Shown here: positions 6,717 to 24,592 of the stretch, piece by piece
How the letters are laid out: the number at the start of each line of letters is the position of its first letter
How positions within the stretch are numbered: the first letter of the stretch is position 1
Assembly: GCA_964389975.1 (NCBI GenBank)
Contig: CAYMGJ010000001.1
Span: forward strand, 22,240 to 86,239
DNA from: an uncultured Candidatus Saccharibacteria bacterium
Lineage (GTDB): Bacteria > Patescibacteriota > Minisyncoccia > Phycocordibacterales > PALSA-1337
Direction: 5' to 3'
Length of the DNA stretch: 64,000 nucleotides
Program-made: the position numbers and the translations under genes
The notes under the pieces: generated by a model
What the model was told of the DNA's origin: nothing
Database searches by the model: none
Seen by the model: only the letters and a program-made list of their open reading frames with translations

Positions 6717-6746
6717 AGAAAAAACTCACTCAACATTAATTATTAA

Positions 6747-6866: not shown

Positions 6867-6881
6867 TTTGTCTTTGTAAAC

Positions 6882-8148: not shown

Positions 8149-8267
8149 GGTAGAATATTTGTTACATTATGATATTTTCATATGTCACATTCACTAAGCT
8201 TGTCATTGCCCGGGAATATATTTCCAGGTCTGGTGTTTGTGATGTATCTCTGTAAGTGATAGATTGC

Positions 8268-8310
8268 AAAAACGAGTTCTGGAAAAAAACCGGAACTCGT
8301 TTTGTATATA
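8268..8310 (+). terminator. rho-independent terminator after tkt genes
   Basis: 12-bp stem aacgagttctgg/ccggaactcgtt with A7 loop followed by T-rich tract. Confidence 0.6.
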
Positions 8311-8343
8311 GTGTACAAAATAGCTCTTCAACATGAGGTGTAT

Positions 8344-8679: not shown

Positions 8680-8696
8680 TTCACCTTCGTTTCAAA

Positions 8697-8733
8697 GACC
8701 GCACGGATTCGTCCATGCGGTTTTTTTATGCTA
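8697..8733 (+). terminator. rho-independent terminator
   Basis: accgcacgga-ttcg-tccatgcggt hairpin followed by T7. Confidence 0.65.
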
Positions 8734-8743
8734 ATCTATCCCT

Positions 8744-10762
8744 ATGTCATTGTTTCAGATATCACAAGATATGGCACCTGCAGGTGATCAGCCAAAGGCT
8801 ATTAAAGGACTCACCGAAGGGCTCTCAAAGGGTTTGAAGAAACAAACTCTTTTTGGCGTTACAGGATCGGGTAAAACATTTACCATGGCAAATGTCATTG
8901 CACAGCATGGTAAACCAACTCTTGTGATCGCTCATAACAAAACTCTTGCTGCACAGCTTGCTCAAGAATATCGAGAGTTTTTTCCTCATAATGCTGTTCA
9001 CTATTTCGTCTCATATTATGACTACTATCAACCTGAAGCATATATGCCCGTCACGGATACGTATATAGAGAAGGAGGCAATGATTAATGAAGAAATTGAA
9101 CGTCTTCGCCATGCCTCAACCCAGGCTCTCCTTACAAGAAAAGATGTTATCATCGTTGCTTCAGTATCTTGTATTTATGGTCTTGGTTCTCCTGTTGAAT
9201 ATGAAAAAGTAAATTTAAAGCTTGGAAAGGGACTAGAAATCCCTCGTGCTGAACTGATTCGCAAGCTCATCGATATACATTTTGAACGAACAACAACTGA
9301 TCTAAGTGCTGGTCAGTTCAGAGCTCTTGGGAATATGATTGAAATTATGCCGGTTAATGAAAGAACAATCTATCGTATTGAGTACGAAGGTAGTGTCATT
9401 TCAGATATCATTGAACTTGATCCTGTTACCATGGCTGTGCGTACCACACATACTGTCATCTTCCTTTTTCCTGCAAAGCACTTCATTAGTACTGATGAGC
9501 AATCAAAGAAAGCGTTTGAGAGTATAAAGAAGGAATTGGAGGGACGATTAAAGGAATTGGAAAAGGCGGGTAAGAATCTTGAGGCTGAGCGTTTGAAACG
9601 TCGAGTGAAGTACGATCTCGCTCTCATTCGTGAAGTTGGGTATTGTAATGGTATTGAAAACTACTCACGTCATTTCTCTGGCAAGAAATCAGGAGAAGCA
9701 CCTGATACTCTTCTTTCATATTTCCCCCATAAGAAGGATGGCAGTCCTGATTTCCTTACCGTTATCGATGAATCTCATGTGTCCGTACCGCAATTGGGAG
9801 GTATGTTTGCTGGAGATGCATCACGTAAAGAGACTCTTGTAGAGTTTGGTTTTAGACTTCCTTCTGCAAAAGACAATCGACCATTGAAATTTGAAGAATT
9901 CGAAGAAAGGGTTGGACAAGTTATCTACACCACCGCTACACCAGGAAAGTTTGAGAAGGAGCATAGTGAAAATATTGTAGAACAGATCATTCGCCCTACA
10001 GGTCTCATTGATCCTGTCATTGAGGTACGACCTGTTGCGGAGAAGGGGACATATGTTGGTCAGATCTTTGACTTCATTGCTGAAGCTGAGAAAGTCATAC
10101 GCCAAGGCGATCGAGTTATCGCCACCACCCTTACCAAGAAAATGGCAGAAGATTTAAGTGAATTTCTTAAGGACAAGGGGATAAAGGCGGAATATTTGCA
10201 TAGTGATATTAAAACCATTGACCGTATTACCATCCTTACTGATTTTAGAAAGGGAAAATTTGATGTACTTGTAGGGGTTAATCTCCTACGAGAAGGACTT
10301 GATCTTCCTGAAGTTTCACTCATTGGGATTCTTGATGCAGACAAAGCTGGTTTTCTTCGTTCTGAAACCTCCCTCATTCAGATCATTGGACGTGCTGCAC
10401 GAAATATCAATGGACGTGTCATCCTCTATGCTGATGTTATGAATGATGCTCTTCGCTATGCGATGAGTGAGACAGAACGTCGTCGCAAGATTCAAATGGA
10501 TTACAATACCAAACATGGTATTACTCCAAAGACAATCATCAAGAAGATTCAAGATATTACCGATCAACTTAAAACCGATCATGATAAAGCAGTGGCAGAA
10601 TTGATGAGAATTGATGAAGACATGCTTAAGGTTAATCCAAAGAAACTCCTTAAAGACAAGGAACAACAGATGAATGAAGCTGTGAAGGTTCTTGATTTTG
10701 AAACTGCCGCTATTCTCCGTGATGAAATTACTGAAATCAAGAAGAGGGTAGACGTTGAATAG
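8744..10762 (+). CDS. uvrB: excinuclease ABC subunit B
   Basis: GSGKTFTMANVIAQ Walker A, helicase motifs, C-terminal UVR domain; 672 aa. Confidence 0.95.
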   Translation: MSLFQISQDMAPAGDQPKAIKGLTEGLSKGLKKQTLFGVTGSGKTFTMANVIAQHGKPTLVIAHNKTLAAQLAQEYREFFPHNAVHYFVSYYDYYQPEAYMPVTDTYIEKEAMINEEIERLRHASTQALLTRKDVIIVASVSCIYGLGSPVEYEKVNLKLGKGLEIPRAELIRKLIDIHFERTTTDLSAGQFRALGNMIEIMPVNERTIYRIEYEGSVISDIIELDPVTMAVRTTHTVIFLFPAKHFISTDEQSKKAFESIKKELEGRLKELEKAGKNLEAERLKRRVKYDLALIREVGYCNGIENYSRHFSGKKSGEAPDTLLSYFPHKKDGSPDFLTVIDESHVSVPQLGGMFAGDASRKETLVEFGFRLPSAKDNRPLKFEEFEERVGQVIYTTATPGKFEKEHSENIVEQIIRPTGLIDPVIEVRPVAEKGTYVGQIFDFIAEAEKVIRQGDRVIATTLTKKMAEDLSEFLKDKGIKAEYLHSDIKTIDRITILTDFRKGKFDVLVGVNLLREGLDLPEVSLIGILDADKAGFLRSETSLIQIIGRAARNINGRVILYADVMNDALRYAMSETERRRKIQMDYNTKHGITPKTIIKKIQDITDQLKTDHDKAVAELMRIDEDMLKVNPKKLLKDKEQQMNEAVKVLDFETAAILRDEITEIKKRVDVE

Positions 10763-10831
10763 TTTGTGTGGTATATATAGTTTTAGAGAAATAGTTTTCA
10801 AAAACAACAAAAACACAACACAAGGAAACGT

Positions 10832-11146
10832 ATGAACTTTAGTAGTTTGATTGCTCTTTATCGTCAGAACAGGGAGCGTTTAGAGGGCAAGATGGATTGG
10901 GCTGTATTTTATCAGGGAAATCTGTATGTACCTCTCTCGATCCCACCACATGTGACATCTCTAAATGACTCTCAGGCGGTATTGGATTATCTTTCATCCT
11001 GCTGGGGTACAAAGATTGATGCAAGTAGTGCTTCAGTTGGGTACGTGGAGGATACCCAAGGGTACTTCTGTTTCTCTCCGGGATCCAACTATCTACAATC
11101 CGATCATCGAATGTACATTCATTGGTCGAGGATTATCTGGGTATAA
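10832..11146 (+). CDS. hypothetical protein (104 aa), GC-shifted
   Basis: AAGGAAA RBS 4 nt before ATG; followed by 9-bp perfect hairpin at 11166-11190. Confidence 0.4.
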   Translation: MNFSSLIALYRQNRERLEGKMDWAVFYQGNLYVPLSIPPHVTSLNDSQAVLDYLSSCWGTKIDASSASVGYVEDTQGYFCFSPGSNYLQSDHRMYIHWSRIIWV

Positions 11147-11246
11147 GCTCATTCCGTTCAATCACACCGCAAGGCTCACCACCTTGCGGTATTTCGTATG
11201 GTGGAAAACTAACCTTGCTTCACATGAGGTGTGATATAATAGTTGC

Positions 11247-12041
11247 ATGAAAGAAATTGTTCTCATTGCTTTAAGTGACACTACACTTGCAACCCATATC
11301 TCAGAAAATCTTGAAGAACATGGGTATGAAGTTGTTTTAGCAGAAGATGGTAATGATGCACTTACAAAGATGAGAGAACTTCTCCCTTCTCTCGTCCTCA
11401 TTGATACACACCTTACGGGCATGGATGGATATAGTGTTCTTCATGAGAAGAGTTTTGATAAACATATAACTAAAATTCCTGTCGTTATCATTTCAAACTC
11501 AGGAAATCCTGTTCAAATGCATCGTATTCCCTCAACACCTACCATTCGTGACTATATAATCAAGACACATATAGAACCAAGTGAAGTTCTTCAGAAGGTA
11601 AGTCTCATCATTGGTAATTCTTCAGGAAATGAACTCGATGCAAATTCAAAAGGAGAACCAGTTAAGGCATCGAAAGGGAAGATAATATTATGGGTAGAAG
11701 ATGATAATCTTCTCAGTAATATTTTGTCGAAAAAGTTTGAAAGTTCTGGATATGAACTCGTTAAAGCAAAGGATGGAGATGAAGCTCTTCGTAAAGTTGA
11801 TGCACACTCTCCTGACATTATCATTCTCGACATTCTCCTTCCTGGTATGACAGGTTTTGAAATACTTCAAAAAATACGCATGAAAGAACATCTTAAGAAA
11901 GTTCCTGTTATGATGCTTTCAAATATGAGTAAGGAGAGTGATATAGAGAAGGCAAAAACTCTTGGTGCTCAGAGATTTGTGGTAAAGGCTGCGGTATCTC
12001 TCGATGAGATAATACGAGAAGTAGAAGCACTCATACGGTAA
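11247..12041 (+). CDS. response regulator with two receiver (REC) domains and no output domain
   Basis: Two CheY-like segments (LIDTHLTGMDG; ILDILLPGMTGFE) each with a conserved Asp and Lys. Confidence 0.8.
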   Translation: MKEIVLIALSDTTLATHISENLEEHGYEVVLAEDGNDALTKMRELLPSLVLIDTHLTGMDGYSVLHEKSFDKHITKIPVVIISNSGNPVQMHRIPSTPTIRDYIIKTHIEPSEVLQKVSLIIGNSSGNELDANSKGEPVKASKGKIILWVEDDNLLSNILSKKFESSGYELVKAKDGDEALRKVDAHSPDIIILDILLPGMTGFEILQKIRMKEHLKKVPVMMLSNMSKESDIEKAKTLGAQRFVVKAAVSLDEIIREVEALIR

Positions 12042-12089
12042 TATCTTTACCCAGCTCTCATAATCTGGTATAGTTATAGCCATTTATAT

Positions 12090-14693
12090 ATGGCAAAACC
12101 CACAAAAAAAACATCACATGAATCTGAGAAGATCATTGTAAAAGGAGCTCGTACACATAATCTCAAGAATATAACGGTTGAGATGCCTCGCAATACCATG
12201 ATTGCCATTACTGGTCTCTCTGGATCAGGGAAATCTTCCCTTGCTTTTGATACCATTTTTGCTGAAGGACAGAGACGCTATGTTGAGTCTCTTTCTTCAT
12301 ATGCTCGTCAGTTCTTGAAGCAAATGCAAAAGCCTGATGTTGATGAGATTGTTGGACTATCTCCTGCCATTTCAATTGATCAGAAATCACGATCGAATAA
12401 CCCTCGATCAACCGTTGCAACAATTACTGAGATCTATGACTATCTCCGTATTCTCTTTGCTCGCGTAGGTAAACCTCATTGTCTTACCTGTGGTCGAGTC
12501 ATTCACCGTATTTCAAAGGAAGAAATACTCACCACCATACTTGGTCAAATATCTCTTCATACGAAAGGAGGAAAGAAAGTTATGGGTGTTGAACTCAATG
12601 AAGACAAGGTTCGTGTATATGCTCCTGTTATCGTTGGACGAAAAGGTGAATACTATCAACTTCTCTATGATCTTCTTGGTAAGGGATATGACAAGGTGAA
12701 GGTTGATGGAAAGGTTATGAGACTTCGAGAACAAATCATTCTCGACAAGAACAAGAAGCATGATATTGATGTGCTTGTTGATGAACTTTTCTTAAGTGAA
12801 TTTAAGGACAAGAAACAATCAGAAAATGCACGGGAACGTCTTTCTGAAGCTCTTGAGAAAGCAATTGAAGAAGCTCAGGGACTTATAAAAATAGAGTTTG
12901 AGCAGGGAGGTGAGATTGAGGAAAAACTCATGTCAATTAAGTTTATGTGTCCCTATGATGGTTTTTCATATCCTGAAATTGAACCTCGTCTCTTCTCTTT
13001 CAATTCTCCATATGGTGCTTGTGCTACGTGTAATGGACTTGGAACTCGAGAGTTCTTTAGTAACGAAGCATGTCCAACATGTAAGGGAGCACGTCTTCGT
13101 GATGAGGCTTTGTATGTAAAAATTGGTGAGAAGAATATTGTTGAAACAACTCATCTCTCAATTGAAAAGGCTCAAGCTTTCTTTGAAGAACTTGAATTGA
13201 CTGATACCGAAAGAGAGATTGCAAAAGTTGTTTTACGTGAGATTGAATCCCGACTCCAGTTTATGATCAATGTAGGTATTGATTACCTCACCCTTGATCG
13301 TCGGGCCCATACTCTCTCAGGTGGTGAAGCCCAGCGTATTCGTCTTGCTTCACAGCTTGGTAGTGGACTTGTTGGCGCACTCTATGTTCTTGATGAACCT
13401 ACCATCGGACTTCATCAGCGTGACAATGATCGCCTCATTAAGACCCTTACGTCTCTTCGAGACCTCGGTAATACCATTGTGGTTGTTGAACATGATGAGG
13501 ATACTATGTATGCCTCTGATTATATTATCGATATCGGTCCGGGAGCAGGGGTTCATGGAGGGAATGTGGTAGTTTCAGGATATCTTGAAGATCTCCTTAC
13601 CGCTAAGACAAATCCATCAAACTCTCTCACTCTCGCATATCTTCGAGGAGAGAAGAAGATTCAAATTCCTGAAAAACGTCGTGAACCTAAGGGAAAGATT
13701 ATGATCCGTGGAGGTAATATATTTAATATCAAAGACTTACATGCAGATATTCCTCTCGGATGTCTCAATGTCATTACAGGGGTATCAGGTTCAGGAAAAT
13801 CTTCTTTTATGTACGAGATTCTTCACAAGAATCTTCAGGCACGTCTCGAGTTTAGACATCGAACAGCTCAGGTATTCAATTGTGATTCATTTACAGGAAC
13901 TGAATATCTCGGAAGAACAATTCTCATTGATCAGAGTGCAATTGGAAGAACTCCACGATCAAATCCCGTAACATATACAGGCGCATGGCAGCATATACGA
14001 GATCTCTTTGCTGCATCTGCAGAAGCTCGTGCACATGGTTGGGGACCTGGACGTTTCTCATTTAATGTAAAGGGAGGACGCTGTGAAGCATGTCAGGGTA
14101 ATGGAGAAATTGCAGTTGAAATGCATTTCCTCCCTACTGTATATGTATCATGTGAGGTGTGTGGTGGAAAACGATTTACAAAAGAAACTCTTGAAGTTAA
14201 GTACAAGGGAAAGAATGTGCATGAAATTCTTCACCTTACCGTAGAAGAGGGTCTCGCATTTTTTGAAGATATTCCTGCAGTATATGATCGTCTCAAGACA
14301 CTTGAAGAAGTTGGACTTGGATATCTTAAACTCGGGCAATCAGCAACGACTCTTTCAGGTGGTGAGGCACAGCGTGTAAAGATATCATCTGAACTCTATC
14401 GAGCTCATCTTCAGAAAACTATATACCTTCTTGATGAACCTACCGTTGGTCTCCATTATGAAGATGTGCGTAAACTCATTGAAATTCTCGAGAGACTTGT
14501 ACAGAAGGGAAATACTGTTGTTGTCATTGAGCACAATCTTGATCTCATTAAATGTGCTGATTATGTTATCGATATCGGACCTCTTGGCGGTGAGAAAGGT
14601 GGTAAGATTGTAGCAAAGGGTACTCCTGAAGATGTTGCTCGGAATGAAAAATCATTTACAGGAATGTATCTCAAGAAAATTTTGAAGAAATAG
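12090..14693 (+). CDS. uvrA: excinuclease ABC subunit A
   Basis: Two ABC ATPase modules ([14 protein letters not shown]; [13 protein letters not shown]), zinc-finger cysteines, LSGGEAQR signatures; 867 aa. Confidence 0.95.
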
Positions 14694-14695
14694 GT

Positions 14696-15901
14696 ATGAA
14701 GAAGAGTGAACTTACACATCTCCCCCAAGCTCCGGGAGTATATTTCTTTCGAGATGCAGACAACAATATTCTGTATATTGGACGTGCAACCTCACTTAAG
14801 GATCGTGTTTTAAGCTACTTCTCATCTGATCTCATAGTAACTCGAGGTCCACTCCTTGTTGATATGGTGACAAAGGCCCACACGGTGACCTCTGTACAAA
14901 CCGATTCAGTTCTTGAAGCCATTATCATGGAAAGTCGGGAGATAAAGAGATGGTTACCATATTACAATACTAAAGAGAAGGATAATCGAAGCTATAACTT
15001 TGTTGTCATTACTGATGAAGATTTCCCTCGTGTTGTCATTGTTCGAGGCAGGGAATTAGACAAGCTCAATGAGGAGGAATTAAAGTTCAAGGTTAAGTAT
15101 CAATTTGGTCCATTTCCTCAGGGGAATCTCTTGAAAGATGCGCTTAAGATATTACGTAAAATATTTCCTTTTCGTGATGAAAAGGCTCGCATACCTCATC
15201 AAAACTCTTTCTATCAATCCCTCGGACTTGCCCCTAAGACTGATACTCTAGAGGATCAGAAGAAGTATGCCCTTACCATACGTAATCTCGTACTCTTCTT
15301 TGAGGGAAAGAAGCAGGAATTGATTACTACTCTCGAGAAAGATATGAATACATATGCAGATAATCAAGAGTTTGAAGAAGCTCAGCGTGTAAGGAACACC
15401 TTGTATGCATTGACTCATATTCAGGATGTTTCGCTCATTAAAGAAGATACTCCTCGTGGTCGGGAAGGATTTCGCATTGAGGCATATGATATTGCTCATA
15501 TGGCTGGTAAAAGTACGGTAGGGGTTATGACGGTTGTCACGGGAGGAGAACCTGAGAAGAGTCAGTACAAGAAGTTTAAGATATCAAAAGATGTGAATGA
15601 TGATGTCGGGGCTCTCAGAGAAGTACTTACCCGACGCTTCTCTCATCCAGAATGGAGATTTCCTGATCTCATTGTTATCGATGGTGGTGTGTCTCAGAAA
15701 AATGCTGCAGAAAGTATTGTACATGGTATACCTCTCGTAACAGTGGTAAAGAATGATGCTCATAAGCCTGATCATTTCTTGGGAGATGAATCTATGATAC
15801 GTGATCATGGACCTGCAATATTGCTTGCAAACTATGAAGCTCATCGTTTTGCCATCGCATATCACAAGAAACTTAGAAGCAAGAAATTTTTTGGTGTATA
15901 A
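14696..15901 (+). CDS. uvrC: excinuclease ABC subunit C, short form lacking C-terminal HhH domain
   Basis: GIY-YIG (GVYFFRDADNNILYIGRATSLKDR), UVR domain (EEAQRVRNTLYAL), RNase H-like endonuclease segment (RIEAYDIAHMAG); only 401 aa. Confidence 0.8.
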   Translation: MKKSELTHLPQAPGVYFFRDADNNILYIGRATSLKDRVLSYFSSDLIVTRGPLLVDMVTKAHTVTSVQTDSVLEAIIMESREIKRWLPYYNTKEKDNRSYNFVVITDEDFPRVVIVRGRELDKLNEEELKFKVKYQFGPFPQGNLLKDALKILRKIFPFRDEKARIPHQNSFYQSLGLAPKTDTLEDQKKYALTIRNLVLFFEGKKQELITTLEKDMNTYADNQEFEEAQRVRNTLYALTHIQDVSLIKEDTPRGREGFRIEAYDIAHMAGKSTVGVMTVVTGGEPEKSQYKKFKISKDVNDDVGALREVLTRRFSHPEWRFPDLIVIDGGVSQKNAAESIVHGIPLVTVVKNDAHKPDHFLGDESMIRDHGPAILLANYEAHRFAIAYHKKLRSKKFFGV

Positions 15902-15909
15902 TATACCTC

Positions 15910-16878
15910 ATGCATACAGTACGTGTTGGAGTTTTACGTGGAGGTCCAAGTGATGAATATGAAGTCTCACTTCAAACAGGTGCGACTGTTTTGAAACATA
16001 TACCACAGTCGAAATATACTGTTCGAGATATTCTTGTTGATAAGCAGGGTATATGGCATGTTGCTGGTGTACCCACACTACCTCACGAAGCACTCAATCA
16101 TGTTGATGTTGTGTTCAATGCTCTCCATGGATATTACGGTGAAGATGGAAAGGTGCAACATATACTCGAGACTCATAAGATTCCTTTTACAGGGTCCACA
16201 TCCATACCTTCAAGTATTGGTATGAACAAGGTTATGAGCAAGGAGGTGTTCAAGAATGCAGGTATTAAGTCACCTCTTCATAAGGTTGTGACCATTTCAT
16301 CATTGAATGAAGATGAGATATATACTCTTTTCAAAACATTTACATTACCTTTCATTGTAAAACCAGCTTCAAGTGGTTCATCTGTGGGTGTTTCTGTTGT
16401 AAGGGATTTTGAATCATTTCCTCTCGCTCTTGAAAAGGCTTTTCAATATGATGATGCTGTACTTGTAGAAGAGTATATATCAGGAAGGGAAGCAACATGT
16501 GGAGTGATTGATGGATATCGAGATCATGATATATATGTCTTACCTCCAATTGAAATACGTACACCTAAGGGGCATTTCTTTGATTTTGATTTGAAATACA
16601 AGGGTGGTATTGAAGAAATTGTACCAGGCAATTTTACTGAACATGAGAAAAAGGAATTAGAGAGAATGGCTAAGGAGGCGCATAAGGCTCTCGGTTTGCG
16701 AGACTATTCTCGATCAGATTTCATCATACATCCACGACGGGGAATATTCATTCTTGAAACAAATACCTTACCAGGACTTACTGAATCATCCCTTATCCCA
16801 AAAGCATTACATGCTGTTGGTGCACCTCTCCATCATTTTATCGATCATATTCTTGAGCTTGCATTACAGCGAAAATGA
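15910..16878 (+). CDS. ddl: D-alanine--D-alanine ligase
   Basis: VGVLRGGPSDEYEVSLQTG N-terminus and ATP-grasp motifs; 322 aa. Confidence 0.85.
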   Translation: MHTVRVGVLRGGPSDEYEVSLQTGATVLKHIPQSKYTVRDILVDKQGIWHVAGVPTLPHEALNHVDVVFNALHGYYGEDGKVQHILETHKIPFTGSTSIPSSIGMNKVMSKEVFKNAGIKSPLHKVVTISSLNEDEIYTLFKTFTLPFIVKPASSGSSVGVSVVRDFESFPLALEKAFQYDDAVLVEEYISGREATCGVIDGYRDHDIYVLPPIEIRTPKGHFFDFDLKYKGGIEEIVPGNFTEHEKKELERMAKEAHKALGLRDYSRSDFIIHPRRGIFILETNTLPGLTESSLIPKALHAVGAPLHHFIDHILELALQRK

Positions 16879-16905
16879 GGTAGAATGATTCAATTGAAAA
16901 ATATT

Positions 16906-16978
16906 GGGCCCGTAGCTCAGTTGGTAGAGCAATCGCTTTGCAAGCGAAAGGTCAGGAGTTCGAATCTCCTCGGGTCCA
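16906..16978 (+). tRNA. tRNA-Ala (anticodon UGC)
   Basis: Cloverleaf: GGGCCCG acceptor stem with G3:U70, D-arm GCUCAGUUGGUAGAGC, anticodon loop UUUGCAA, T-arm GGAGUUCGAAUCUCC; CCA not encoded. Confidence 0.9.
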
Positions 16979-17078
16979 CAACTATTGATTACAATATATA
17001 ATTGTGGTATAAAATATCACAGTTCTTTTATATTATCTACAGGATAGTCATAGCCAAAAGATCTTAATGAATTGAGGT

Positions 17079-17654
17079 TTGTTGGCTATGACTACCCGCA
17101 CTTTGTGGATGTCCTCTAGTATAAACAAGCGAAAACCAAAAGGAAAAAACGCTATGTACTGTAAACAAACAGGAAAACTGCTTGCGCGTGTGGCAGAGTC
17201 TATGCCTCACATGCATTCAGATGCGATGCGACAATGGATCGATAATCCATTAGGACTACAAAGAGTTCTCAAGAGGGCTTTAAATCCTTCTGCGATCATC
17301 CGACCGGCAAATGTGTCGGTTTGGAAAACCAGTTTAGCAAAGGGTGACTTTGCTGCAGTGACGCCCGCACAGCTTGGCTTCGCAAATGGGAATGTGACGG
17401 CTGGAGAGATTTGCGATCGAGCGATTGAAATCAGCTTAGAATATTGCACTAGAGGATCTTTTAATCAGTTGCCAGTACAGGAAGTGAACAACGGTTTGAT
17501 CGTGCTGTTCGAGCCCGTGAGTCCATACGCAAGTCATTGTGGTTATATCGAGTTTTACAAAGGTGAAGAAAACCGCTCGATTAGCGGTCAGTTGAATCTA
17601 AACGAAACTCGGTCTGGCAAAGTTCGCTGGCTCTTCCTCATACCCCCAAAGTAA
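17079..17654 (+). CDS. hypothetical protein (island ORF 1; start may be internal ATG MYCKQ)
   Basis: ORF track; first ORF 3' of tRNA-Ala; terminator immediately downstream. Confidence 0.4.
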   Translation: MLAMTTRTLWMSSSINKRKPKGKNAMYCKQTGKLLARVAESMPHMHSDAMRQWIDNPLGLQRVLKRALNPSAIIRPANVSVWKTSLAKGDFAAVTPAQLGFANGNVTAGEICDRAIEISLEYCTRGSFNQLPVQEVNNGLIVLFEPVSPYASHCGYIEFYKGEENRSISGQLNLNETRSGKVRWLFLIPPK

Positions 17655-17692
17655 AGTTAAATGCTTTTACGATATTTGGTGACCAAATCCTA

Positions 17693-17728
17693 CCCCAAGC
17701 AAGTTCGTTGCTTGGGGTTTTGTGTTTT
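17693..17728 (+). terminator. rho-independent terminator
   Basis: ccccaagcaagttcgttgcttgggg hairpin followed by ttttgtgtttt. Confidence 0.65.
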
Positions 17729-17827
17729 CATATCACCACTCAAATACTTCAAAATATTTCTCAAAATTCCGCATTTGTAAGGGTGAAATGCGAACAACCG
17801 CAGAGTCACATCTGTGGTTTGTCTTTT

Positions 17828-17924
17828 TTATTTCAAAATTTCTTTTAAATACCACACCCCTTCACAAACTGGTTTTAGAAAAGTTAAACTGAGATCCATC
17901 CACAGAAATAGCCCTATAAATAGG
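17828..17924. repeat. 97-bp direct repeat, copy 1 (island intergenic repeat)
   Basis: ttatttcaaaatttcttttaaataccacacc...atccacagaaatagccct; ~96% identical to 19441-19538. Confidence 0.85.
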
Positions 17925-18097
17925 CAAGAGTTGAAACTAACAAGTGATTGCCGGGTTTTTTGAATCTAGGAGAGGTTCGAATTGAAATATTTACAATTAT
18001 TATAATTTATGTTATTATCTAGTCAGAACCGCACCTTGAAAGATGTCGGTTTTTTTCAATTTTCCACAACAATCAACAATCCAAATAGGAGGACCTT

Positions 18098-19270
18098 ATG
18101 TCTCAAAAAAATCAAAACTTTGGAGAGCCTATAGACCGGCTTCTTCGTAGTTACGAAGTTACTATGCAGTTTCTCTCTTTCGTGATTGAAATCTTCACAA
18201 AAGGACAGACAGGTCAGTTTGCTGATCCTTTCTGGAATCGGATCTTAAAAGGTCCAGTCACACATTGGCAAAGTTTTCGAAATTCTTTGCTTAAAGTGCA
18301 CACTGATGGATTTGACGTTGAAAAATACGTTGGACCAACACACAATAGTCATCCTCAAAGTATGAAGGAGTTCGAGTTCACCCAACCACGCTTGGTGGCA
18401 ATGCGTGTTGCTGAGTGGACAAAATCCTCTCGCAGAGTTTACCGTGTGCCAAAGGACCTTCAGTTGCTTTTGGCAGCCACAAGCCTTCAAGGTATCGACT
18501 GGTCAATGATCAAATGGCCTTTCGACTCGTTACTCATCTCTCTCGAGGAGCCACTGGTTTTTGGAGGGAAGACAATCGATGCGATCTTGATTGCCAAAGA
18601 AATTGTTCATGGTCATGAAGTCATGGCTATTGAAACTATTGCTACCGACTTGCCAACTATGGAGTCGGTGTTCATTGGCGATCAGCGTTCGAGGATTAAA
18701 AAAGCAATCCAAAAGGGCGACAAGGTTTCACTGGATTATGCAAAAGAAAAACTTGCATCCGCCGTCAAGAACCGTATGAATGGAGGTGGCAAAATATGGC
18801 TGACAAAAAAAGCCTGTTTTGAACCCGGAGGATTCGCTTCGAAATTTGAAGAACTTGATCTCGGAAAGGCAGATGAAACCTCGGCTTCAAAGGTGATCTT
18901 CAGGATCGTCTTTGGGTTGATGCTCTATCTACAGTCTCGTCCAACAAAGGAACTCATTCCAAAAGGATGGGAGCTGTCAACGTTTGAACGGCGAGAGGGT
19001 CCGAGTCGTGTAATCAGACTTGCATCGGAGGTTTGTGTGGTAAAAAGCATCTACTCACTGACTAGTGCAGAACGAGAGGTGCTTGAGCCAATTCTTCGTG
19101 GTGGTTATGTGGAGATTGCTCCGCATCACCGTGAAGGTCACTGGCGTCGTCCTCCCGGAAAAGGAGATGACCCTAATCATCCAAAGACTGTGTGGGTCTG
19201 TCCGACAATCGTGAGGCGTGACAAACTTGCTGATGGAGGATTGCCTCTTGGAAGCACTGAAGTCGTCTGA
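18098..19270 (+). CDS. hypothetical protein (390 aa; island ORF 2), GC-rich
   Basis: AGGAGG RBS 6 nt before ATG; no recognisable motif; ~50% GC against ~37% flanks. Confidence 0.5.
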   Translation: MSQKNQNFGEPIDRLLRSYEVTMQFLSFVIEIFTKGQTGQFADPFWNRILKGPVTHWQSFRNSLLKVHTDGFDVEKYVGPTHNSHPQSMKEFEFTQPRLVAMRVAEWTKSSRRVYRVPKDLQLLLAATSLQGIDWSMIKWPFDSLLISLEEPLVFGGKTIDAILIAKEIVHGHEVMAIETIATDLPTMESVFIGDQRSRIKKAIQKGDKVSLDYAKEKLASAVKNRMNGGGKIWLTKKACFEPGGFASKFEELDLGKADETSASKVIFRIVFGLMLYLQSRPTKELIPKGWELSTFERREGPSRVIRLASEVCVVKSIYSLTSAEREVLEPILRGGYVEIAPHHREGHWRRPPGKGDDPNHPKTVWVCPTIVRRDKLADGGLPLGSTEVV

Positions 19271-19293
19271 CATCATTCAGTCACAATATTAAC

Positions 19294-19334
19294 AAGCCCC
19301 TTCCATGTTCAATCCGTGGTTGAGGGCTTTTTTA
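19294..19334 (+). terminator. rho-independent terminator
   Basis: aagcccc...gagggcttttttag hairpin + T-run immediately after ORF. Confidence 0.5.
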
Positions 19335-19440
19335 GTTCACGAAAATAAACAAGACCAGATATTGAAACCCCTCGACTGCTTCACAAGCTCCCCGTTACCC
19401 TTGACGAGGTCATTCAGCAACTTGGCGATCTTGTTAATTA

Positions 19441-19538
19441 TTATTTCAAAATTTCTTTTAAATACCACACCACTTCACAAACTGGTTTTAGAAAAGTTAA
19501 ACTGAGATCTATCCACAGAAATAGCCCTAGAAATAAGG
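19441..19538. repeat. 97/98-bp direct repeat, copy 2
   Basis: Near-identical to 17828-17924 (3 substitutions, 1 indel). Confidence 0.85.
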
Positions 19539-19561
19539 GTTATTTTGATATTTAACAAGTA

Positions 19562-19591
19562 TTGACAAATAGATATTTAGTATGCTATAAT
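19562..19591 (+). promoter_or_regulatory. sigma-70-type consensus promoter (TTGACA-18-TATAAT)
   Basis: Exact TTGACA at 19562-19567 and TATAAT at 19586-19591. Confidence 0.55.
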
Positions 19592-19805
19592 ATAAACAAT
19601 CAAGTTAGATCATTGAAAATTAAATAGTGAAAGTTAGAAGATTGGCTTGTTCCAGTTGGAGTAGTATCTTGCATACCTAACCTCTTGTGGGGATTAGGTG
19701 TTCAAGAAAACTGCTCCGACAGAAAACAATGGAGCGGGTCAGTCACATGGGTGGGATCATCCCGCATTGTGAGCTAGTCCGCGAGACTGCAGAAAGCCTG
19801 CATAT
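19592..19805 (+). promoter_or_regulatory. ~210-nt GC-rich structured 5' leader (candidate cis-regulatory RNA)
   Basis: Several local hairpins (cctaa..ttagg; gctcc..ggagc; tggga..tccca) and a long-range ggctt/aagcc pairing that overlaps the region just upstream of ATG 19806. Confidence 0.3.
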
Positions 19806-20696
19806 ATGAAAACAATCGAAAATAATACCGTTAAGCTCGTTAGTCACTTCCAACGTGGTGGTTGGGTCAGTCAATGGGATGGACAAAAGTTTGTCAAAGT
19901 CGCCAGTGCCGCGGAGAATACCTGGTATGACGATGGTGACGACTCAAAAGAAGTCGCCCTTCCCGAAGGTTTCAAGGGTGCGGTCGGTGAGTTCCATGGC
20001 GTGTCATCATCGGTCGCATTGGTTGGATTCACTGATGAGGAGCTCAATGCTCCCTCACCAGTTCAAGGTTGGGACAATGTTGGTGTTGGATTTCGTGCTG
20101 AAAGGTGCGAACTCATCAGGAACCTTGGGGATTACCTCAAGGCAATTGCCAACAACTCGTTCGTTGCCATTCCTGAAAAGGGTGACGTACACACAGTCTC
20201 CGGCAATCGCCTCGTCGAACTTCCGTTCGATTGGGGTGATCAAGCAGCAAATCACTATGCTATCATTTCGCCGAAAGGTGAAATTCTAAGCGAAGTGAGT
20301 GGCTGTGGCGATCAAGCCCCTTACCCGCTCAAGGCGGATATGACAAAGGACTGGGAGTTCTCCTCGTTGTTTGAGGACATGAATCGTAAAAACGAGCGTA
20401 ACAACGCCGCGTTCAAGGCGGGGTGGTCCGACAAGTGGCAGGAAGTCGCGAATCATCTTCGCTCTTGCTATAAGATGGGTCAAAACCCCCTGCCAACACT
20501 TCGCAAGAAGTATACTGGCAAATGGGTTTACCATCAGGCAGGAACATTGCCGGAAGATAGTGAAGTCGGGGAAGTCCGCTTCACCGAACTTCCCCAACGG
20601 GAGAACGAAACAGCGACAGCGCCGGACGGACACTCCAGTTTCTGGGGCAACGTTTGGAATCGCTGGCAGGTGAGTTACATCCCTGCAACGCTTTGA
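19806..20696 (+). CDS. hypothetical protein (296 aa; island ORF 3), GC-rich
   Basis: ORF track; ~52% GC; no recognisable motif. Confidence 0.5.
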   Translation: MKTIENNTVKLVSHFQRGGWVSQWDGQKFVKVASAAENTWYDDGDDSKEVALPEGFKGAVGEFHGVSSSVALVGFTDEELNAPSPVQGWDNVGVGFRAERCELIRNLGDYLKAIANNSFVAIPEKGDVHTVSGNRLVELPFDWGDQAANHYAIISPKGEILSEVSGCGDQAPYPLKADMTKDWEFSSLFEDMNRKNERNNAAFKAGWSDKWQEVANHLRSCYKMGQNPLPTLRKKYTGKWVYHQAGTLPEDSEVGEVRFTELPQRENETATAPDGHSSFWGNVWNRWQVSYIPATL

Positions 20697-20719
20697 AGGG
20701 CGTTCAACAAAATCTTCAA

Positions 20720-20752
20720 CCCTCGAGCAATTTGGCTCGGGGGTTTTATTAT
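20720..20752 (+). terminator. rho-independent terminator
   Basis: ccctcgagc-aatttg-gctcggggg hairpin followed by ttttatt. Confidence 0.6.
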
Positions 20753-20824
20753 TCCAATTTTTTAAATATCACACTCCTCCACATCCTTAGTAAGGGCCAT
20801 TTAGCTAGAATTCAAGTATAGATA

Positions 20825-20853
20825 TTGACAAATCTATTATATAGTAGTACTAT
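20825..20853 (+). promoter_or_regulatory. candidate sigma-70 promoter (TTGACA-17-TACTAT), shares ATATTGACAAAT with 19558-19571
   Basis: TTGACA at 20825-20830; -10-like TACTAT 17 nt downstream. Confidence 0.4.
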
Positions 20854-20910
20854 CAAGATCGGGTTCTTGGATAAAACCGAGGACAGATTGAATTAAAAAT
20901 AATACATGAA

Positions 20911-21324
20911 GTGAGAACTCAAACTAATTCTTTCTGCCTCAAAACAGAAAGGAATAGTGTGTGTGATCACCAGTCGCTAGTAGGTTACGAAGAGTATGCA
21001 TTCTTTGGTAGGAATTGTCTGTCCTGCCTAAACCCGGGGGAGACCTCACCCTACGATGCAGCTGTTAAATATGCTGCAAAGTTTCCGGGTGCTTGTGTGA
21101 TTGAGGAGAGGGATGGCTTTCGGATCTTTGGACCGAGTAAAATCAGTCTCTCATCTCTATCACAAGAGGATGTGGAGTTACTCGAGAGATTTGCAAGTGG
21201 GTCTGCTTTACCTCCTTTGTCAGAACATGACAGAAAGGTGCTTACAGATTTTCTCAGGACACCTCTTGAGGATCATATCGAAAGATGGAAAAAGAACATT
21301 CCCTGGAGGAATGAAGAAACGTAA
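20911..21324 (+). CDS. hypothetical protein (island ORF 4; true start uncertain, possibly GTG near 20958)
   Basis: ORF track; Cys-containing N-terminus; terminator downstream. Confidence 0.35.
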   Translation: MRTQTNSFCLKTERNSVCDHQSLVGYEEYAFFGRNCLSCLNPGETSPYDAAVKYAAKFPGACVIEERDGFRIFGPSKISLSSLSQEDVELLERFASGSALPPLSEHDRKVLTDFLRTPLEDHIERWKKNIPWRNEET

Positions 21325-21331
21325 CTAAATT

Positions 21332-21364
21332 GGCCGTCACTCTGTGTGGCGGTCTCTTTTTATT
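21332..21364 (+). terminator. rho-independent terminator followed by degenerate copy of island repeat motif (tttatttcaaaattttt)
   Basis: ccgtcac-tct-gtggcgg hairpin then tctcttttta. Confidence 0.4.
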
Positions 21365-21410
21365 TCAAAATTTTTAAAATGTGAATATCTCTGTTATATT
21401 GATTTAATAT

Positions 21411-22049
21411 ATGAAAAACTTAAAAAGTAGTTTTGTAGTCCAGATAATAATCACAATGATTATTATGGTTTTAATAGGTGGAGGAATATATTATGTAGTG
21501 GAATATAGATATTCAGAACCATCTACAGTAATGGAAGGTTTTTCTAATAATTTGATACCAACTAAGAAAAATATTGAAGTAGACACAAAGCAGGTCGTTG
21601 ATTCAGGTTCAAATACCTCATTGACTAAGATTTATAAAGATTCTAAATATTTCTTCACTGTAAATTACCCAAATACATGGATCGCCTCTAAGGGAGAGGA
21701 ATCAGATATGGGAGGTTTCCATTATACTCATTTTGGAGTTTCAAATATTTACGAAAAGCCATTTGTGTGGATTAGAGTCTATCCTAGACAGACCTCTCTG
21801 GATAACTTCCTAAGATATTATAAAGGATTATCTGGAATTTGGTCTGATACTGTTGTAGATGGAATTCCTGCTAAAAAACTTAATAACATAAATCAAGATA
21901 ATCAGGGAATAATACTGATTGCATTTGTTAAGGATGGATACGGTTACGACATAGCTTCTACAGCATTTGGGCAATATGGATCTGTAGCAAATGAGATGGC
22001 TCTAACCTTTAAATTTGCCTCATCAACAAATACAACCTCAGACGAATAA
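21411..22049 (+). CDS. hypothetical membrane-anchored protein (N-terminal TM, 212 aa)
   Basis: IIITMIIMVLIGGGIYYVV hydrophobic anchor; returns to low-GC composition. Confidence 0.45.
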   Translation: MKNLKSSFVVQIIITMIIMVLIGGGIYYVVEYRYSEPSTVMEGFSNNLIPTKKNIEVDTKQVVDSGSNTSLTKIYKDSKYFFTVNYPNTWIASKGEESDMGGFHYTHFGVSNIYEKPFVWIRVYPRQTSLDNFLRYYKGLSGIWSDTVVDGIPAKKLNNINQDNQGIILIAFVKDGYGYDIASTAFGQYGSVANEMALTFKFASSTNTTSDE

Positions 22050-22130: not shown

Positions 22131-23510
22131 GTGCCTATGACACCCACCATTTTCATCATTTTCGGTATTACTGGTGACCTTGCAGGACGTAAGCTTCTTC
22201 CCGCTCTTCTCAATCTCTATGTTAAAAAACAATTACCTTCAAAGTTTGCTATCGTAGGATTTTCTCGTAAAACATTTTCCAAAGAAGAATTTCGTAGCTT
22301 CATTCGAGATCATATGCAGATTCGTCCTGGAGAATTTAAGGAAGAAGATGTTAAACACTTCATTGATCATATGAGTTATGAACAAGGTTTCTTTGATCGT
22401 CCAGAATCATATGCTAATCTCCTTAAACGTCTTGAATTTATCGATCAAGGATTTCGTCAATGTTCGAACAAATTGTTCCACCTTTCAATTCCACCAACTC
22501 TCTATGAATCTATCTTTACCCATCTTGCTGAATCAGGACTCACTGTTCCATGTATTGGAGATGAAGGATGGACACGTGTGCTTGTAGAAAAACCATTTGG
22601 AAATGATATTGAAACAGCAAAGAAGCTCGAGAAGCTTCTTGGAGAACTTTTTCAAGAATCTCAAATATTCCGTATCGATCACTATCTCGCAAAGGAAGCA
22701 CTTCAGAATATCATTGCATTCCGTTTTGCAAACTCACTTTTTGAACCACTATGGAATCGGAATCATATAGAGAGGGTACATATAAAGTTATTAGAAAAGA
22801 TTCCTGTAGGAAGTCGTGGTGCTTTCTATGACAAGATTGGAGCCCTTAAAGACGTGGGGCAAAACCATATGCTTCAGATGCTTGCTCTCATTGCTATGGA
22901 CAAGCCAGAAAGTCTTGAGGCATCGTTTCTTCGTAAAGAGAGAGCAAAGATTCTCAAGAATCTTAAACCTTTCACTCAAAAGAGTATTGCAGGAGGAGCA
23001 GTGCGTGGTCAGTATGAGGGGTATCGTTCTGAACCAGGGGTATCAGAACATTCTCAAACTGAAACATATTTCAGATTAGAAACATATATTGAGACATCAC
23101 GTTGGAAAAATGTCCCTTTCTATCTCGAAAGTGGTAAATCATTAGCAGAAACAAAAACTGAGATTGATGTATATTTCAAAAATGAAGAAGGGGAATCTCG
23201 ACAGAATATCCTCACCTTCCGTATTCAGCCTGATGAGGGTATCAAGATACGTTTCTGGGTAAAGACACCTGGCTTTGGTCTTGATGTTGAGCCTAAGACA
23301 CTTAAGTTCCGTTACAGTGATTTCCCTTCACTCTCTGATCTTCCTGATGCATATGAACATGTTCTCTATGATGCCATCATTGGAGATCAAACTCTCTTTA
23401 CAAGTACTGATGAGGTTCTCTCAGCATGGAAATATATTACCCCCATTATCAATCTCTGGAATATTGTTCCTCTAACATCGTACAAGAAGGGTTCAGTGGA
23501 TGTGATATAA
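22131..23510 (+). CDS. zwf: glucose-6-phosphate 1-dehydrogenase
   Basis: FIIFGITGDLAGRKLLPAL NADP-binding N-terminus; RIDHYLAKE active-site motif. Confidence 0.85.
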   Translation: MPMTPTIFIIFGITGDLAGRKLLPALLNLYVKKQLPSKFAIVGFSRKTFSKEEFRSFIRDHMQIRPGEFKEEDVKHFIDHMSYEQGFFDRPESYANLLKRLEFIDQGFRQCSNKLFHLSIPPTLYESIFTHLAESGLTVPCIGDEGWTRVLVEKPFGNDIETAKKLEKLLGELFQESQIFRIDHYLAKEALQNIIAFRFANSLFEPLWNRNHIERVHIKLLEKIPVGSRGAFYDKIGALKDVGQNHMLQMLALIAMDKPESLEASFLRKERAKILKNLKPFTQKSIAGGAVRGQYEGYRSEPGVSEHSQTETYFRLETYIETSRWKNVPFYLESGKSLAETKTEIDVYFKNEEGESRQNILTFRIQPDEGIKIRFWVKTPGFGLDVEPKTLKFRYSDFPSLSDLPDAYEHVLYDAIIGDQTLFTSTDEVLSAWKYITPIINLWNIVPLTSYKKGSVDVI

Positions 23511-23772: not shown

Positions 23773-23817
23773 GGGATTGACAGAGGAAGGTTCTCCCCAC
23801 TATACTTATCTCCAGTT

Positions 23818-24147
23818 ATGCTCGTCGTTAGATTGATGTGTTTGATGTATATCGGCGGTATCGCTGGTGAAGATCGGATTTCGTCTCGTTATGACGATAT
23901 CCACGCATGGGTATTTGCTCAAAGCGATGTCTATCGCTCGTATGGACCTCCACCAGATTCACTGTTTCTTAGAGTACCAGTCGAACAGGTTTTTCGTGTC
24001 ATGCATCCAGATGCATGTCCAGTTCGTTCGACACCCGTCATCGTTCCGTTTCAAGGGATTACACTCCCTCATCAATCATCTCAACAGATGATTCCGTATC
24101 GTTACCGCAGGTGTATCGCCCAAGACTGGGTGCCTCCTCCGGTATGA
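23818..24147 (+). CDS. hypothetical protein (109 aa) in GC-shifted segment; coding status uncertain
   Basis: Promoter-like TTGACA-17-TATACT at 23780-23812, strong terminator at 24188-24218, but no RBS and an overlapping second-frame ORF. Confidence 0.25.
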   Translation: MLVVRLMCLMYIGGIAGEDRISSRYDDIHAWVFAQSDVYRSYGPPPDSLFLRVPVEQVFRVMHPDACPVRSTPVIVPFQGITLPHQSSQQMIPYRYRRCIAQDWVPPPV

Positions 24148-24187
24148 AAGGTTTGCGTTTTTGTTTTTGGTTTTTTGCTTAAGGATA

Positions 24188-24218
24188 GCGGCTCTCCACC
24201 AGGGGGAGCCGCTTTTTC
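24188..24218 (+). terminator. rho-independent terminator
   Basis: agcggctctcc-accag-ggggagccgc followed by ttttt. Confidence 0.7.
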
Positions 24219-24268
24219 GTTCCATATGTAGTGTATACTTTATTACTAGAGGAAAGGAGGTGATACGT

Positions 24269-24502
24269 ATGAAAGATGATGAAGAAACAATGCTTGAACC
24301 CTATGTGGATTTCTTTGTTGAAATAGAAGGGGCATTGACTGCTCATCCATCGAAGGAAGAGATTGCTCGAAAGTGTCGAAGAATTATTCTCACAGGTGTC
24401 AAAGAAGATAAACATCCTTCAGGTCCAGCTATTCTCCAAAGAGTTCTTGCTCAACACAGACCATCTGTCCGTGATTCGCGACCAGTAAGGTTTGTCTCTT
24501 AG
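24269..24502 (+). CDS. small hypothetical protein (78 aa)
   Basis: GGAAAGGAGGTG RBS before ATG 24269; hairpin ccggtcacatacttgtggccgg downstream. Confidence 0.4.
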   Translation: MKDDEETMLEPYVDFFVEIEGALTAHPSKEEIARKCRRIILTGVKEDKHPSGPAILQRVLAQHRPSVRDSRPVRFVS

Positions 24503-24592
24503 TCATCATCAAGACTCCGGTCACATACTTGTGGCCGGGGTTCTTTGTACCCAATCTAGCCCCAAATCAACACGTATGCTACACTCTCTACC

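Follow-up and report, generated by a model that had tools for sequence, protein, structure and literature searches.

A probable hotspot of single-gene cassettes behind tRNA-Ala in a Patescibacteria chromosome, with an AcrVA2/FinQ-like candidate and a structured leader RNA

When several genes of foreign composition lie side by side behind a tRNA gene, were they acquired as one system or do they only share a place in the chromosome? The question is raised by positions 16985-21400 of the 64,000-nucleotide (nt) stretch of DNA analysed here (the window), where four open reading frames (ORF1 to ORF4) follow tRNA-Ala(UGC) on the forward (+) strand, the strand of all window features given below. An earlier note made from the letters alone (the sequence-only reading) took them for one acquired island, plausibly an accessory or defence-type system. 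We propose, with a probability of roughly two in three, that the interval is a tRNA-linked hotspot of independent single-gene cassettes and not a four-gene system: four monocistronic genes that are foreign in composition and have no common origin, each with its own promoter-like site and terminator, placed between tRNA-Ala and a block of native composition. The island would be ordinary in kind, a tRNA-linked variable region, and its value would lie in ORF2 and in the leader RNA of ORF3. Comparisons were made with contigs or regions fetched from relatives, labelled L001-L122.

Separate histories of the four genes

All four ORFs are present as described, directly 3' of tRNA-Ala(UGC), and in every comparison their codon positions 1 and 2 are far more conserved than position 3, which is the mark of purifying selection; all four are genuine genes. 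The shift of composition is also there, the GC content at third codon positions (GC3) being 0.453, 0.417, 0.535 and 0.406 for ORF1 to ORF4 against 0.288 ± 0.035 for 40 other genes of the window (z-scores of 3.4-7.1). Counted over 300 nt at a time, GC reaches 0.47-0.53 inside the ORFs, 0.31-0.39 between them and 0.33-0.41 in the flanks. The figure of about 50% GC for the two large ORFs against about 37% around them is right for ORF3 (0.513) and too high for ORF2 (0.459), with a background of 0.39.

Independent transcription is borne out, since each gene has its own promoter-like site and its own terminator. Terminator-like hairpins were found behind all four genes by terminator scan and folding, and in the region from 14 to 26 kb the highest-scoring promoter-like sites stand before ORF3 (12/12), ORF4, ORF2 and ORF1. 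The idea that strong promoters are rare elsewhere holds for these best-scoring sites, which cluster here, but there is no overall excess, 25 promoter-like sites being found in that region against 27.5 expected. The AGGAGG ribosome-binding sites proposed earlier were seen before ORF2 only, ORF3 having no Shine-Dalgarno (SD) sequence and lying behind a structured leader. Structured 5' leaders were observed in all four cassettes.

The four genes are not found together in any related locus. When all four proteins were searched by tblastn against every fetched locus, no second member appeared near any homologue: homologues of ORF2 occur without ORF1, ORF3 and ORF4 in L002, L121, L122 and L120, those of ORF3 are solitary in L004, L007 and L008, and those of ORF1 stand without the other three in L118 and L119. 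The families are also small and patchy, with 5, 15 and 7 representatives.

Horizontal acquisition, which had been proposed for the whole set, finds evidence for ORF2 and ORF3, whereas the divergence of ORF1 fits an old residence. The ORF2 cassette, taken from the first base past the promoter to the end of the terminator (18024-19331), has 86% nucleotide identity to L002/L003, against only about 70% for the flanking uvrA, uvrC and ddl in the same blastn comparison. At four-fold sites, identity to L002 is 0.70 for ORF2 (171 sites) and 0.36, 0.37 and 0.44 for uvrA, uvrC and ddl, values that are essentially saturated. Since the synonymous sites of ORF2 are so much less diverged than those of its neighbours, the gene was by this measure exchanged long after the hosts split, thus recently, though it stands at the same site in both. 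The GC3 of homologues is steady as well, 0.36-0.46 for ORF2 and 0.47-0.57 for ORF3, in hosts whose own GC3 spans 0.19-0.55. ORF1, in contrast, has 46% amino-acid identity and a four-fold-site identity of 0.30 to the L118 copy, equal to the divergence of ddl and uvrC, and therefore fits an old resident of the locus. Taken together, these data support an island that was at least partly acquired horizontally and that is independently transcribed.

The interval itself varies between relatives. The junction of ddl with tRNA-Ala(UGC) is conserved in about 15 of them, and each relative examined has its own content between tRNA-Ala and zwf. In L023 and L012, zwf lies 5.6-9 kb downstream of tRNA-Ala and the intervening genes are entirely different: small membrane paralogues, a glyoxalase, lexA and ppa in L023; a 1154-aa (amino-acid) surface protein, lexA, greA, lysS and a H+-PPase in L012. 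In L011 (Candidatus Taylorbacteria) a single different GC-rich cassette with a structured leader comes right after tRNA-Ala, followed by a terminator and by the post-terminator element that the window also has (TTaTTATTyCAAAAT.TCTTTTAAATAyC). Beyond these come an incomplete copy of the tRNA 3' end and a membrane-anchored protein, the latter with no significant similarity to that of the window. Occupation of the same locus in relatives by the same ORFs was found for ORF1 (L118) and ORF2 (L121, L002) only, which bears out in part the outcome that was to refute the sequence-only reading, and an empty site, with tRNA-Ala leading directly to the membrane protein of the window and zwf, was found in no relative.

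A conserved element of about 150 nt was observed downstream of tRNA-Ala in L003 (35-183), L014 (11112-11300), L011 (3425-3595) and L121 (6660-6810). It does not occur in the window, and it ends in a partial tRNA-Ala 3' end (GACCGAATCTCCTCGGGTCCACA) that looks like a scar of an attachment (att) site or a tRNA-derived remnant.

Between the cassettes lies a direct repeat, R, of which the window has two full copies of 98 nt, 96% identical to each other, at 17825-17922 (copy 1) and 19438-19535 (copy 2). The repeat said to follow each ORF is thus complete after ORF1 and ORF2 and partial after the other two: a third copy of about 38 nt (20746-20783) comes after the ORF3 terminator, and a fourth of about 17-30 nt (21357-21373) after the ORF4 terminator, directly before the next gene. 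Within the window R is restricted to the island. The 5' 35-40 nt of copy 1 are common to copies 3 and 4 and to L011, and the hairpin ATAGCCCTAGAAATAAGGGTTATTTT at the 3' end of copy 2 (19520-19545) matches the sequence right after tRNA-Ala in L011 (2740-2765, 96%) and also precedes the promoter of another cassette in L014 (11849-11873, 96%). To judge by this distribution, R is a sequence proper to the locus that was duplicated between the cassettes and not brought by them.

From this arrangement we infer that, once DNA has been taken up, homologous recombination of the Campbell type at R or at the conserved tRNA flank would add cassettes or remove them. A single crossover with circular or taken-up DNA holding one R copy would leave direct repeats round each insert, recombination between two R copies would delete or release a cassette, and the outcome would be an integron-like array without an integrase. 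A second public assembly of the same organism, L001 (JACCEA011114842.1, 99.97% identical), ends its contig at window position 20003, inside ORF3, a break that may reflect strain variation at the cassette array.

Several observations weigh against a hotspot built in this way. In other genomes the ORF2 and ORF3 cassettes come without R (and those of ORF3 have no consistent flanking repeats), no recombination intermediate is visible in the window, and, even with up to 3 mismatches allowed, the last 18 nt of the tRNA occur just once there, with no att duplication. No integrase is found among the four proteins of the island, the rest of the 64-kb window not having been scanned for recombinases. The absence of an integrase or transposase among the island ORFs had been noted before and stands, the four proteins having no match in Pfam or NCBIfam. 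Moreover, the recurrence of ORF1 and ORF2 at the same locus in relatives could equally mean long residence.

Long residence is the core of one alternative, that the genes are native, lineage-specific and vertically inherited, their odd composition being due to a constraint of function or expression. It draws on the ORF1 and ORF2 homologues after ddl-tRNA-Ala in L118, L002 and L121, on the match between the divergence of ORF1 (46% at the amino-acid level, 0.30 at four-fold sites) and that of ddl and uvrC, and on a subgroup of the genes with a leader like that of ORF3 that keeps a fixed thyA/folA-glyA position in several genomes. The four-fold-site identity of ORF2 (0.70 against 0.36-0.44 in the neighbouring housekeeping genes) does not agree with it, nor do ORF3 homologues at different loci and in both orientations, a GC3 that stays constant across hosts of very different GC3, and families as tiny and patchy as these; we hold it to be quite unlikely. 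The island could otherwise be what is left, after decay and loss of the integrase and the far att site, of one prophage or other integrative element that had entered at the tRNA-Ala 3' end, and to this the adjacency to the tRNA lends itself, as do the partial tRNA-Ala 3' duplicates downstream in L002/L003 (at 151 nt), L011 and L121, the AcrVA2-like array of L120 beside an integrase and a DDE transposase, and the fact that the AcrVA2 family, to which ORF2 is assigned below, is typically borne by mobile elements. In the window, however, there is no tRNA 3' duplicate, the island has no integrase and its genes no phage or plasmid homologues; the four genes differ in composition and history, ORF3 homologues insert alone at tRNA-free sites, and the repeats stand between every cassette and not just at the ends. 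Such a remnant is unlikely.

A single accessory or anti-phage defence system, its four genes working together and acquired in one piece, comes closest to what had been suggested first and is very improbable. That the genes are adjacent, on one strand, all GC-shifted and beside a tRNA would suit it, but they have separate promoter-like sites and terminators, GC3 values spread over 0.41-0.54 and differing evolutionary histories, and together they occur nowhere else. Nor did a defence function find support: with PADLOC-DB 2.0 neither the four ORFs nor the neighbouring membrane protein gave a match to any defence-system hidden Markov model (HMM) at E<=1, and the only classifiable member, ORF2, is assigned to a family of anti-defence or plasmid conflict. 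The hotspot of independent cassettes is the reading that we retain. The statement that none of the proteins carries a recognisable motif agrees with our scans of Pfam, PADLOC, PHROGs and NCBIfam, which gave nothing for the four proteins; ORF2 could be placed in the AcrVA2/FinQ family by other means.

ORF2 and the AcrVA2/FinQ family

ORF2 (18098-19270) encodes 390 aa. Its upstream region (17990-18097) comprises a promoter-like site with TG (17990-18018, 10/12), a hairpin in the 5' untranslated region (18025-18053) and the AGGAGG site, and both the hairpin and the untranslated region are kept in L003. A terminator-like hairpin with a U-tract (19294-19333; -16.8 kcal/mol by RNAfold for 19285-19340) closes the block that the cassette has in common with L002 and L003.

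In precomputed protein-database annotation, ORF2 and about 44 of 54 homologues are assigned to PF26125, 'AcrVA2-like' (E<=1e-5). The structure points the same way. The AlphaFold2 model (predicted local distance difference test, pLDDT, 73.6; predicted template modelling score, pTM, 0.74) was compared by Foldseek with 350,542 PDB chains, and the first three ranks were AcrVA2 chains (7ci2_A, 7ci1_A and 7ci1_B; E of 5.7e-3 to 2.3e-2, probability 0.90-0.99, 188-286 aligned columns), while the fourth rank fell to E 0.64 and probability 0.06. Homologues of ORF2 have a variable N-terminus and a conserved C-terminus, where the most conserved segment of the family, HFREGHWRRPPGKG, reads H343-H-R345-E-G-H348 in ORF2; among 28 homologues R345 never varies, and conservation is at least 90% at H343, G347 and W349. 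The residues H286, R288 and H291 of AcrVA2 are required for its activity and are conserved in FinQ (Marino et al., doi 10.1101/2022.11.29.518452), and the H343-x-R345-x-x-H348 of ORF2 was matched to them at the level of the motif.

Other results speak against this assignment. In a local hmmscan against Pfam-A, PF26125 was found for 0 of 28 family members, the local copy probably being without the model; the TM-scores to AcrVA2 are low (0.19-0.36), a likeness at the level of the domain and of moderate strength; and the motif region of the model is of low confidence. Neither ORF2, nor the family profile, nor the C-terminal 90 aa gave an AcrVA2 match when PDB was searched by sequence, tblastn of ORF2 against phages and plasmids gave no match, and the family profiles of ORF2 and ORF3 had no relatives in IMG/VR. 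Cytochrome b and mevalonate decarboxylase, which came up in the PDB sequence searches, were discarded as chance matches. On balance, ORF2 is best read as a putative member of the AcrVA2/FinQ family at the level of fold and motif.

The distribution of the homologues is in agreement with a gene that moves and diversifies. After tRNA-Ala, they occur in L002/L003 (90% identity) and L121 (64%); a lone homologue (45%) adjoins a DEAD helicase in L122, and on the 36.5-kb contig of L120 about 11 diverged paralogues of AcrVA2 type stand in tandem at 5909-19375, flanked by a gene with helix-turn-helix and Peptidase_M78 domains, DUF4411, a DDE_5 transposase and a phage integrase. Such an array fits a diversifying conflict gene. 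For carriage by mobile elements there are thus the signature of recent transfer and the place of the L120 array next to integrase and transposase, set against the lack of any phage, plasmid or IMG/VR homologue.

AcrVA2 binds the nascent N-terminus of Cas12a, which leads to loss of the Cas12a mRNA; homologues of AcrVA2 are common on mobile elements, as a rule with no Cas12a, and other targets are presumed for them (doi 10.1101/2022.11.29.518452). How the mRNA is degraded was still unexplained in a 2026 review. By analogy, the variable N-terminal part of ORF2 would bind a single specific target protein while its chain is still being made, upon which the conserved HxRxxH region at the C-terminus would cause the mRNA of this target to be lost, for a putative role in counter-defence or in competition between mobile elements.

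The ORF3 leader and its protein family

ORF3 (19806-20696, 296 aa) is preceded by a full-consensus promoter, TTGACA-18-TATAAT with an extended -10 (19562-19591, 12/12), which is kept in L004, L007 and L008, and it is followed by a terminator (20718-20745). Between promoter and gene lies a structured leader (19655-19802), made of a long 5' hairpin (19655-19720) and a core (19732-19806). The 210 nt from the promoter to the ATG are conserved in L004, L007 and L008 with compensatory changes, and RNAalifold on four sequences gave 48 pairs, 9 of them with compensatory changes.

Metagenome contigs were scanned with the pattern GTGAGNTANTCCGCGAGANTG, three of its positions being left free, and of 71 matches about 30 were distinct true leaders; the other 40 or so, together with all 11 viral matches, were discarded as chance matches in coding sequence. 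From these the core is defined as about 70 nt with the order H1, an optional H2, (N)GUGAG, H3, H4 and the start codon. H1 is a covarying stem with the loop GUCAC(C/A/U), of which UCAC pairs with the GUGA of (N)GUGAG to form a pseudoknot. The consensus of H3 is A(R)UC-CGCGA-GA(Y)U (AGUC-CGCGA-GACU in the window), and H4 is UGGAGAAUCCA, containing GGAG, in most copies and CUGCAGAAAGCCUGCA in those of the ORF3 type, which also have the long 5' hairpin as an extra. The start codon comes 2-6 nt past H4 (in the window, H4 stops 3 nt before the AUG), and almost all of the 33 leader instances end 12-16 nt ahead of the ATG.

The structure is supported by several measures. In an alignment of 22 sequences (A7), 93.9% of cells are paired, against 28-41% in slid controls; the covariation score of 0.358, compared with 0.146, was reached by none of 500 shuffles, and double changes occur in 9 of 19 pairs. 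The pair that extends the pseudoknot (16-43) is CG in 8 sequences, AU in 5 and UA in 2, and in H3 the two positions left free in the pattern can pair in every sequence (GC 15, AU 7). Covariance models score the leader of the window at 170.8 bits (R1) and 73.3 bits (R2), with exactly one copy in the window. Rfam 15 gave no match at the gathering threshold, nothing relevant on the region at E<=5 to 10 and nothing on 13 other motif loci, and a literature search for a described RNA motif of such kind in bacteria of the Candidate Phyla Radiation (CPR, Patescibacteria) returned nothing relevant.

Other explanations of the leader were discarded. A coding function is suggested by some gene callers, which extend the homologues into the leader (MGG..CELVRETAESLHM), but the copy of the window is frameshifted with respect to such a reading, the helices covary, the motif precedes unrelated N-termini and the spacing is variable. 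An IS110 bridge RNA, an OMEGA RNA, a retron, a type III toxin-antitoxin RNA and a ribozyme were rejected for want of a recombinase, reverse transcriptase or nuclease domain and of an Rfam match.

The genes behind the leader fall into two size classes, one with ORF3-like products of about 300 aa and one with products of 135-190 aa, none of them with a Pfam family. The shorter ones share with ORF3 residues 212-246 the module SYxxGxNPLPxLRKxFPxxW (hhalign probability 95.9%, E 5.7e-9), and this module, as far as alignments tell, defines an uncharacterised protein family to which ORF3 belongs. The AlphaFold2 model of ORF3 (pLDDT 89.8) consists of N-terminal beta-sandwich domains, with generic Ig-like matches only, and a helical/beta C-terminal part, the module with SCYKMGQNPLPTLRKKYTGKW. 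In a few leader copies H4 is degenerate, and the ORFs behind these are truncated or unrelated.

The contexts of leader-bearing genes are chromosomal and of CPR type. The ORF3 homologue of L004 (75-78% identity) lies between dsbA and a uvrD-like gene, those of L007 and L008 stand in opposite orientations in the gap from map to ndk, where the ribosomal-protein cluster ends, and a leader gene of L045 is placed between tRNAs and ddl-uvrC. Several others keep the thyA/folA-glyA position, and some copies are decaying. In three independent cases, L096 (about 3100-3576, minus strand), L100 (1-470) and L104 (2554-3083), the leader and its NPLPxLRK gene were seen just upstream of the 5' end of the 23S rRNA gene, on the same strand. 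In L035, L037, L041, L043 and L075 an operator-like palindrome (e.g., ACACTAAGTATATGCTATCGC...AGTTAGTGTATA) abuts the -35 box TTGACA about 60-100 nt upstream of the leader, and in this thyA/glyA-context subgroup the palindrome is common to a divergent gene for a 190-aa membrane protein. Downstream of the leader-associated gene of L087, a match resembling the type III hammerhead ribozyme was recorded at 1316-1370 (41.3 bits for a gathering score of 48.5, E 1e-5).

The leader of ORF3 is thus a well-supported structured RNA, to judge by covariation, with no Rfam family and tied to one protein family. It would gate translation initiation of the ORF3 family in cis. As conservation is higher in the RNA than in the protein, and the RNA goes with no family but that of NPLPxLRK, we favour a leader bound by its own product, and give such autoregulation, a translational control acting in cis, a chance slightly short of even. 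The main alternative, a riboswitch for a small molecule, is less likely, and a functional partnership of leader RNA and product is possible. Against a translational switch stands the fact that the GGAG of most family leaders is missing in that of ORF3, so that sequestration of an SD sequence is not obvious for the copy of the window. As a tentative proposal, the leader and the NPLPxLRK protein (ORF3 and its relatives of about 140-190 aa) could make up an undescribed RNA-protein module that moves horizontally among CPR bacteria, either a new class of riboswitch or autoregulatory RNA or a conflict pair, standing here beside an AcrVA2-like gene in a cassette array built on repeats and free of integrase.

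Neighbouring features and likeness to known systems

The two remaining genes of the island are small. ORF1 most likely starts at ATG 17154, as in all its homologues, and then covers 17154-17654 (166 aa); the mechanical start TTG 17079 is unlikely because it lies inside a strong hairpin (17042-17097), formed by a 27-nt inverted repeat between tRNA-Ala and ORF1. A promoter-like site (16975-17002, 10/12) precedes the gene and two terminator-like hairpins (17692-17718 and 17796-17819) follow it. Only 5 cluster representatives, all of 150-166 aa, were found in 5.8 billion proteins, and the L118 homologue (46% identity) also lies directly after ddl-tRNA-Ala. ORF1 looks like an older, lineage-specific occupant of the tRNA-Ala locus, as far as its divergence tells. 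After the ORF1 homologue of L118, a distant Parcubacteria genome, positions 6600-9100 hold several small uncharacterised ORFs whose GC swings from 0.32 to 0.59 and back, a pattern suggestive of a similar mosaic of cassettes.

ORF4 probably begins at GTG 20959 and ends at 21324 (121 aa), the mechanical ORF running from 20911; most of its 7 representatives among 1.84 billion proteins start at the residue equivalent to position 17. Its promoter-like site (20825-20853, 10/12) and structured leader together span 20825-20958, a hairpin at 20927-20955 covers the ribosome-binding site GAAAGGAA, and the terminator is at 21332-21354.

The window has a GC content of about 39%, and a + strand housekeeping run of uvrB, a response regulator, uvrA (12090-14693), uvrC (14696-15901) and ddl (15910-16878, GC3 0.245) leads to the island. 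The upstream boundary of the variable region is tRNA-Ala(UGC) itself (16906-16979; ARAGORN; Rfam RF00005, 71.4 bits), and the downstream boundary is a 212-aa membrane-anchored protein of native composition (21411-22049, GC3 0.249), followed by zwf (22131-23510, GC3 0.287) and, further on, ychF. The nearest relatives of Ddl in species-representative genomes have 57-64% identity and come from metagenome-assembled genomes of Patescibacteria, labelled Candidatus Taylorbacteria, Paceibacterota or 'Saccharibacteria'. The host of the island is by sequence similarity a CPR chromosome, near Candidatus Taylorbacteria.

Between zwf with a 75-aa ORF and ychF, two further small promoter-terminator units of shifted GC were noticed. 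The one at 23777-24213 has TTGACA-18-TATACT, a 109-aa ORF (23818-24147) and a strong terminator (24187-24213); the one at 24240-24540 has a 77-aa ORF (24269-24502) with the ribosome-binding site GGAAAGGAGG. Neither gave a family or Rfam match, and a non-coding RNA at 23812-24186 was rejected, with a fold z-score of only -1.64 and no Rfam match.

CPR bacteria have tiny genomes and few known mobile elements. An island of this type would mean that their chromosomes gather foreign single-gene cassettes at a tRNA-linked spot without a recognisable mobility gene. In addition, the AcrVA2/FinQ homologues of CPR bacteria, including arrays of about 11 paralogues, would provide natural variation for target finding, and we know of no study of the AcrVA2/FinQ mechanism in organisms lacking Cas12a. 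To our knowledge, almost no classes of cis-regulatory RNA have been described in this lineage; the ORF3 leader, as a candidate for a new one, lends itself to direct testing.

Among known systems, the closest to ORF2 is AcrVA2/FinQ (PF26125), with AcrVA2 of a Moraxella bovoculi prophage (PDB 7CI1/7CI2) and FinQ of IncI/F-like plasmids. The likeness consists of size (390 aa against about 320 aa), the HxRxxH motif and a genome context without sign of Cas12a, as is typical for the family. In contrast to AcrVA2, ORF2 is chromosomal, solitary and tRNA-linked in a CPR bacterium, has no partner acr or aca gene and no detectable sequence similarity to AcrVA2 or to phage or plasmid records, and counts among its relatives tandem arrays of about 11 paralogues, which are not mentioned for AcrVA2 in the literature consulted.

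The ORF3 leader is to be compared with translational riboswitches and autoregulatory leaders of pseudoknot type, such as the preQ1, SAM-II and fluoride classes and ribosomal-protein leaders. Like them, the leader of the ORF3 family is compact (about 70 nt), with a hairpin-loop pseudoknot, highly conserved unpaired nucleotides and a terminal hairpin that holds the SD sequence in most members and abuts the start codon. Unlike them, it has no match in Rfam 15 and goes with one protein family instead of a metabolic regulon.

The island as a whole shares with tRNA-linked islands a foreign, variable content immediately 3' of a tRNA that differs between related genomes, and departs from them in that no integrase is found in the island and no att duplication in the window, the unit of variation being a single cassette of promoter, gene and terminator. 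With integron arrays it has in common unrelated single-gene cassettes in one orientation and a shared element, R, behind each. However, the island has no IntI, attI or Pc, and each of its cassettes is supplied with a promoter of its own; where an integron has an imperfect-palindrome attC, the island has R, an AT-rich direct repeat 17 to 98 nt long that comes after the terminator. R is specific to the locus, and the ORF2 and ORF3 cassettes are found elsewhere without it.

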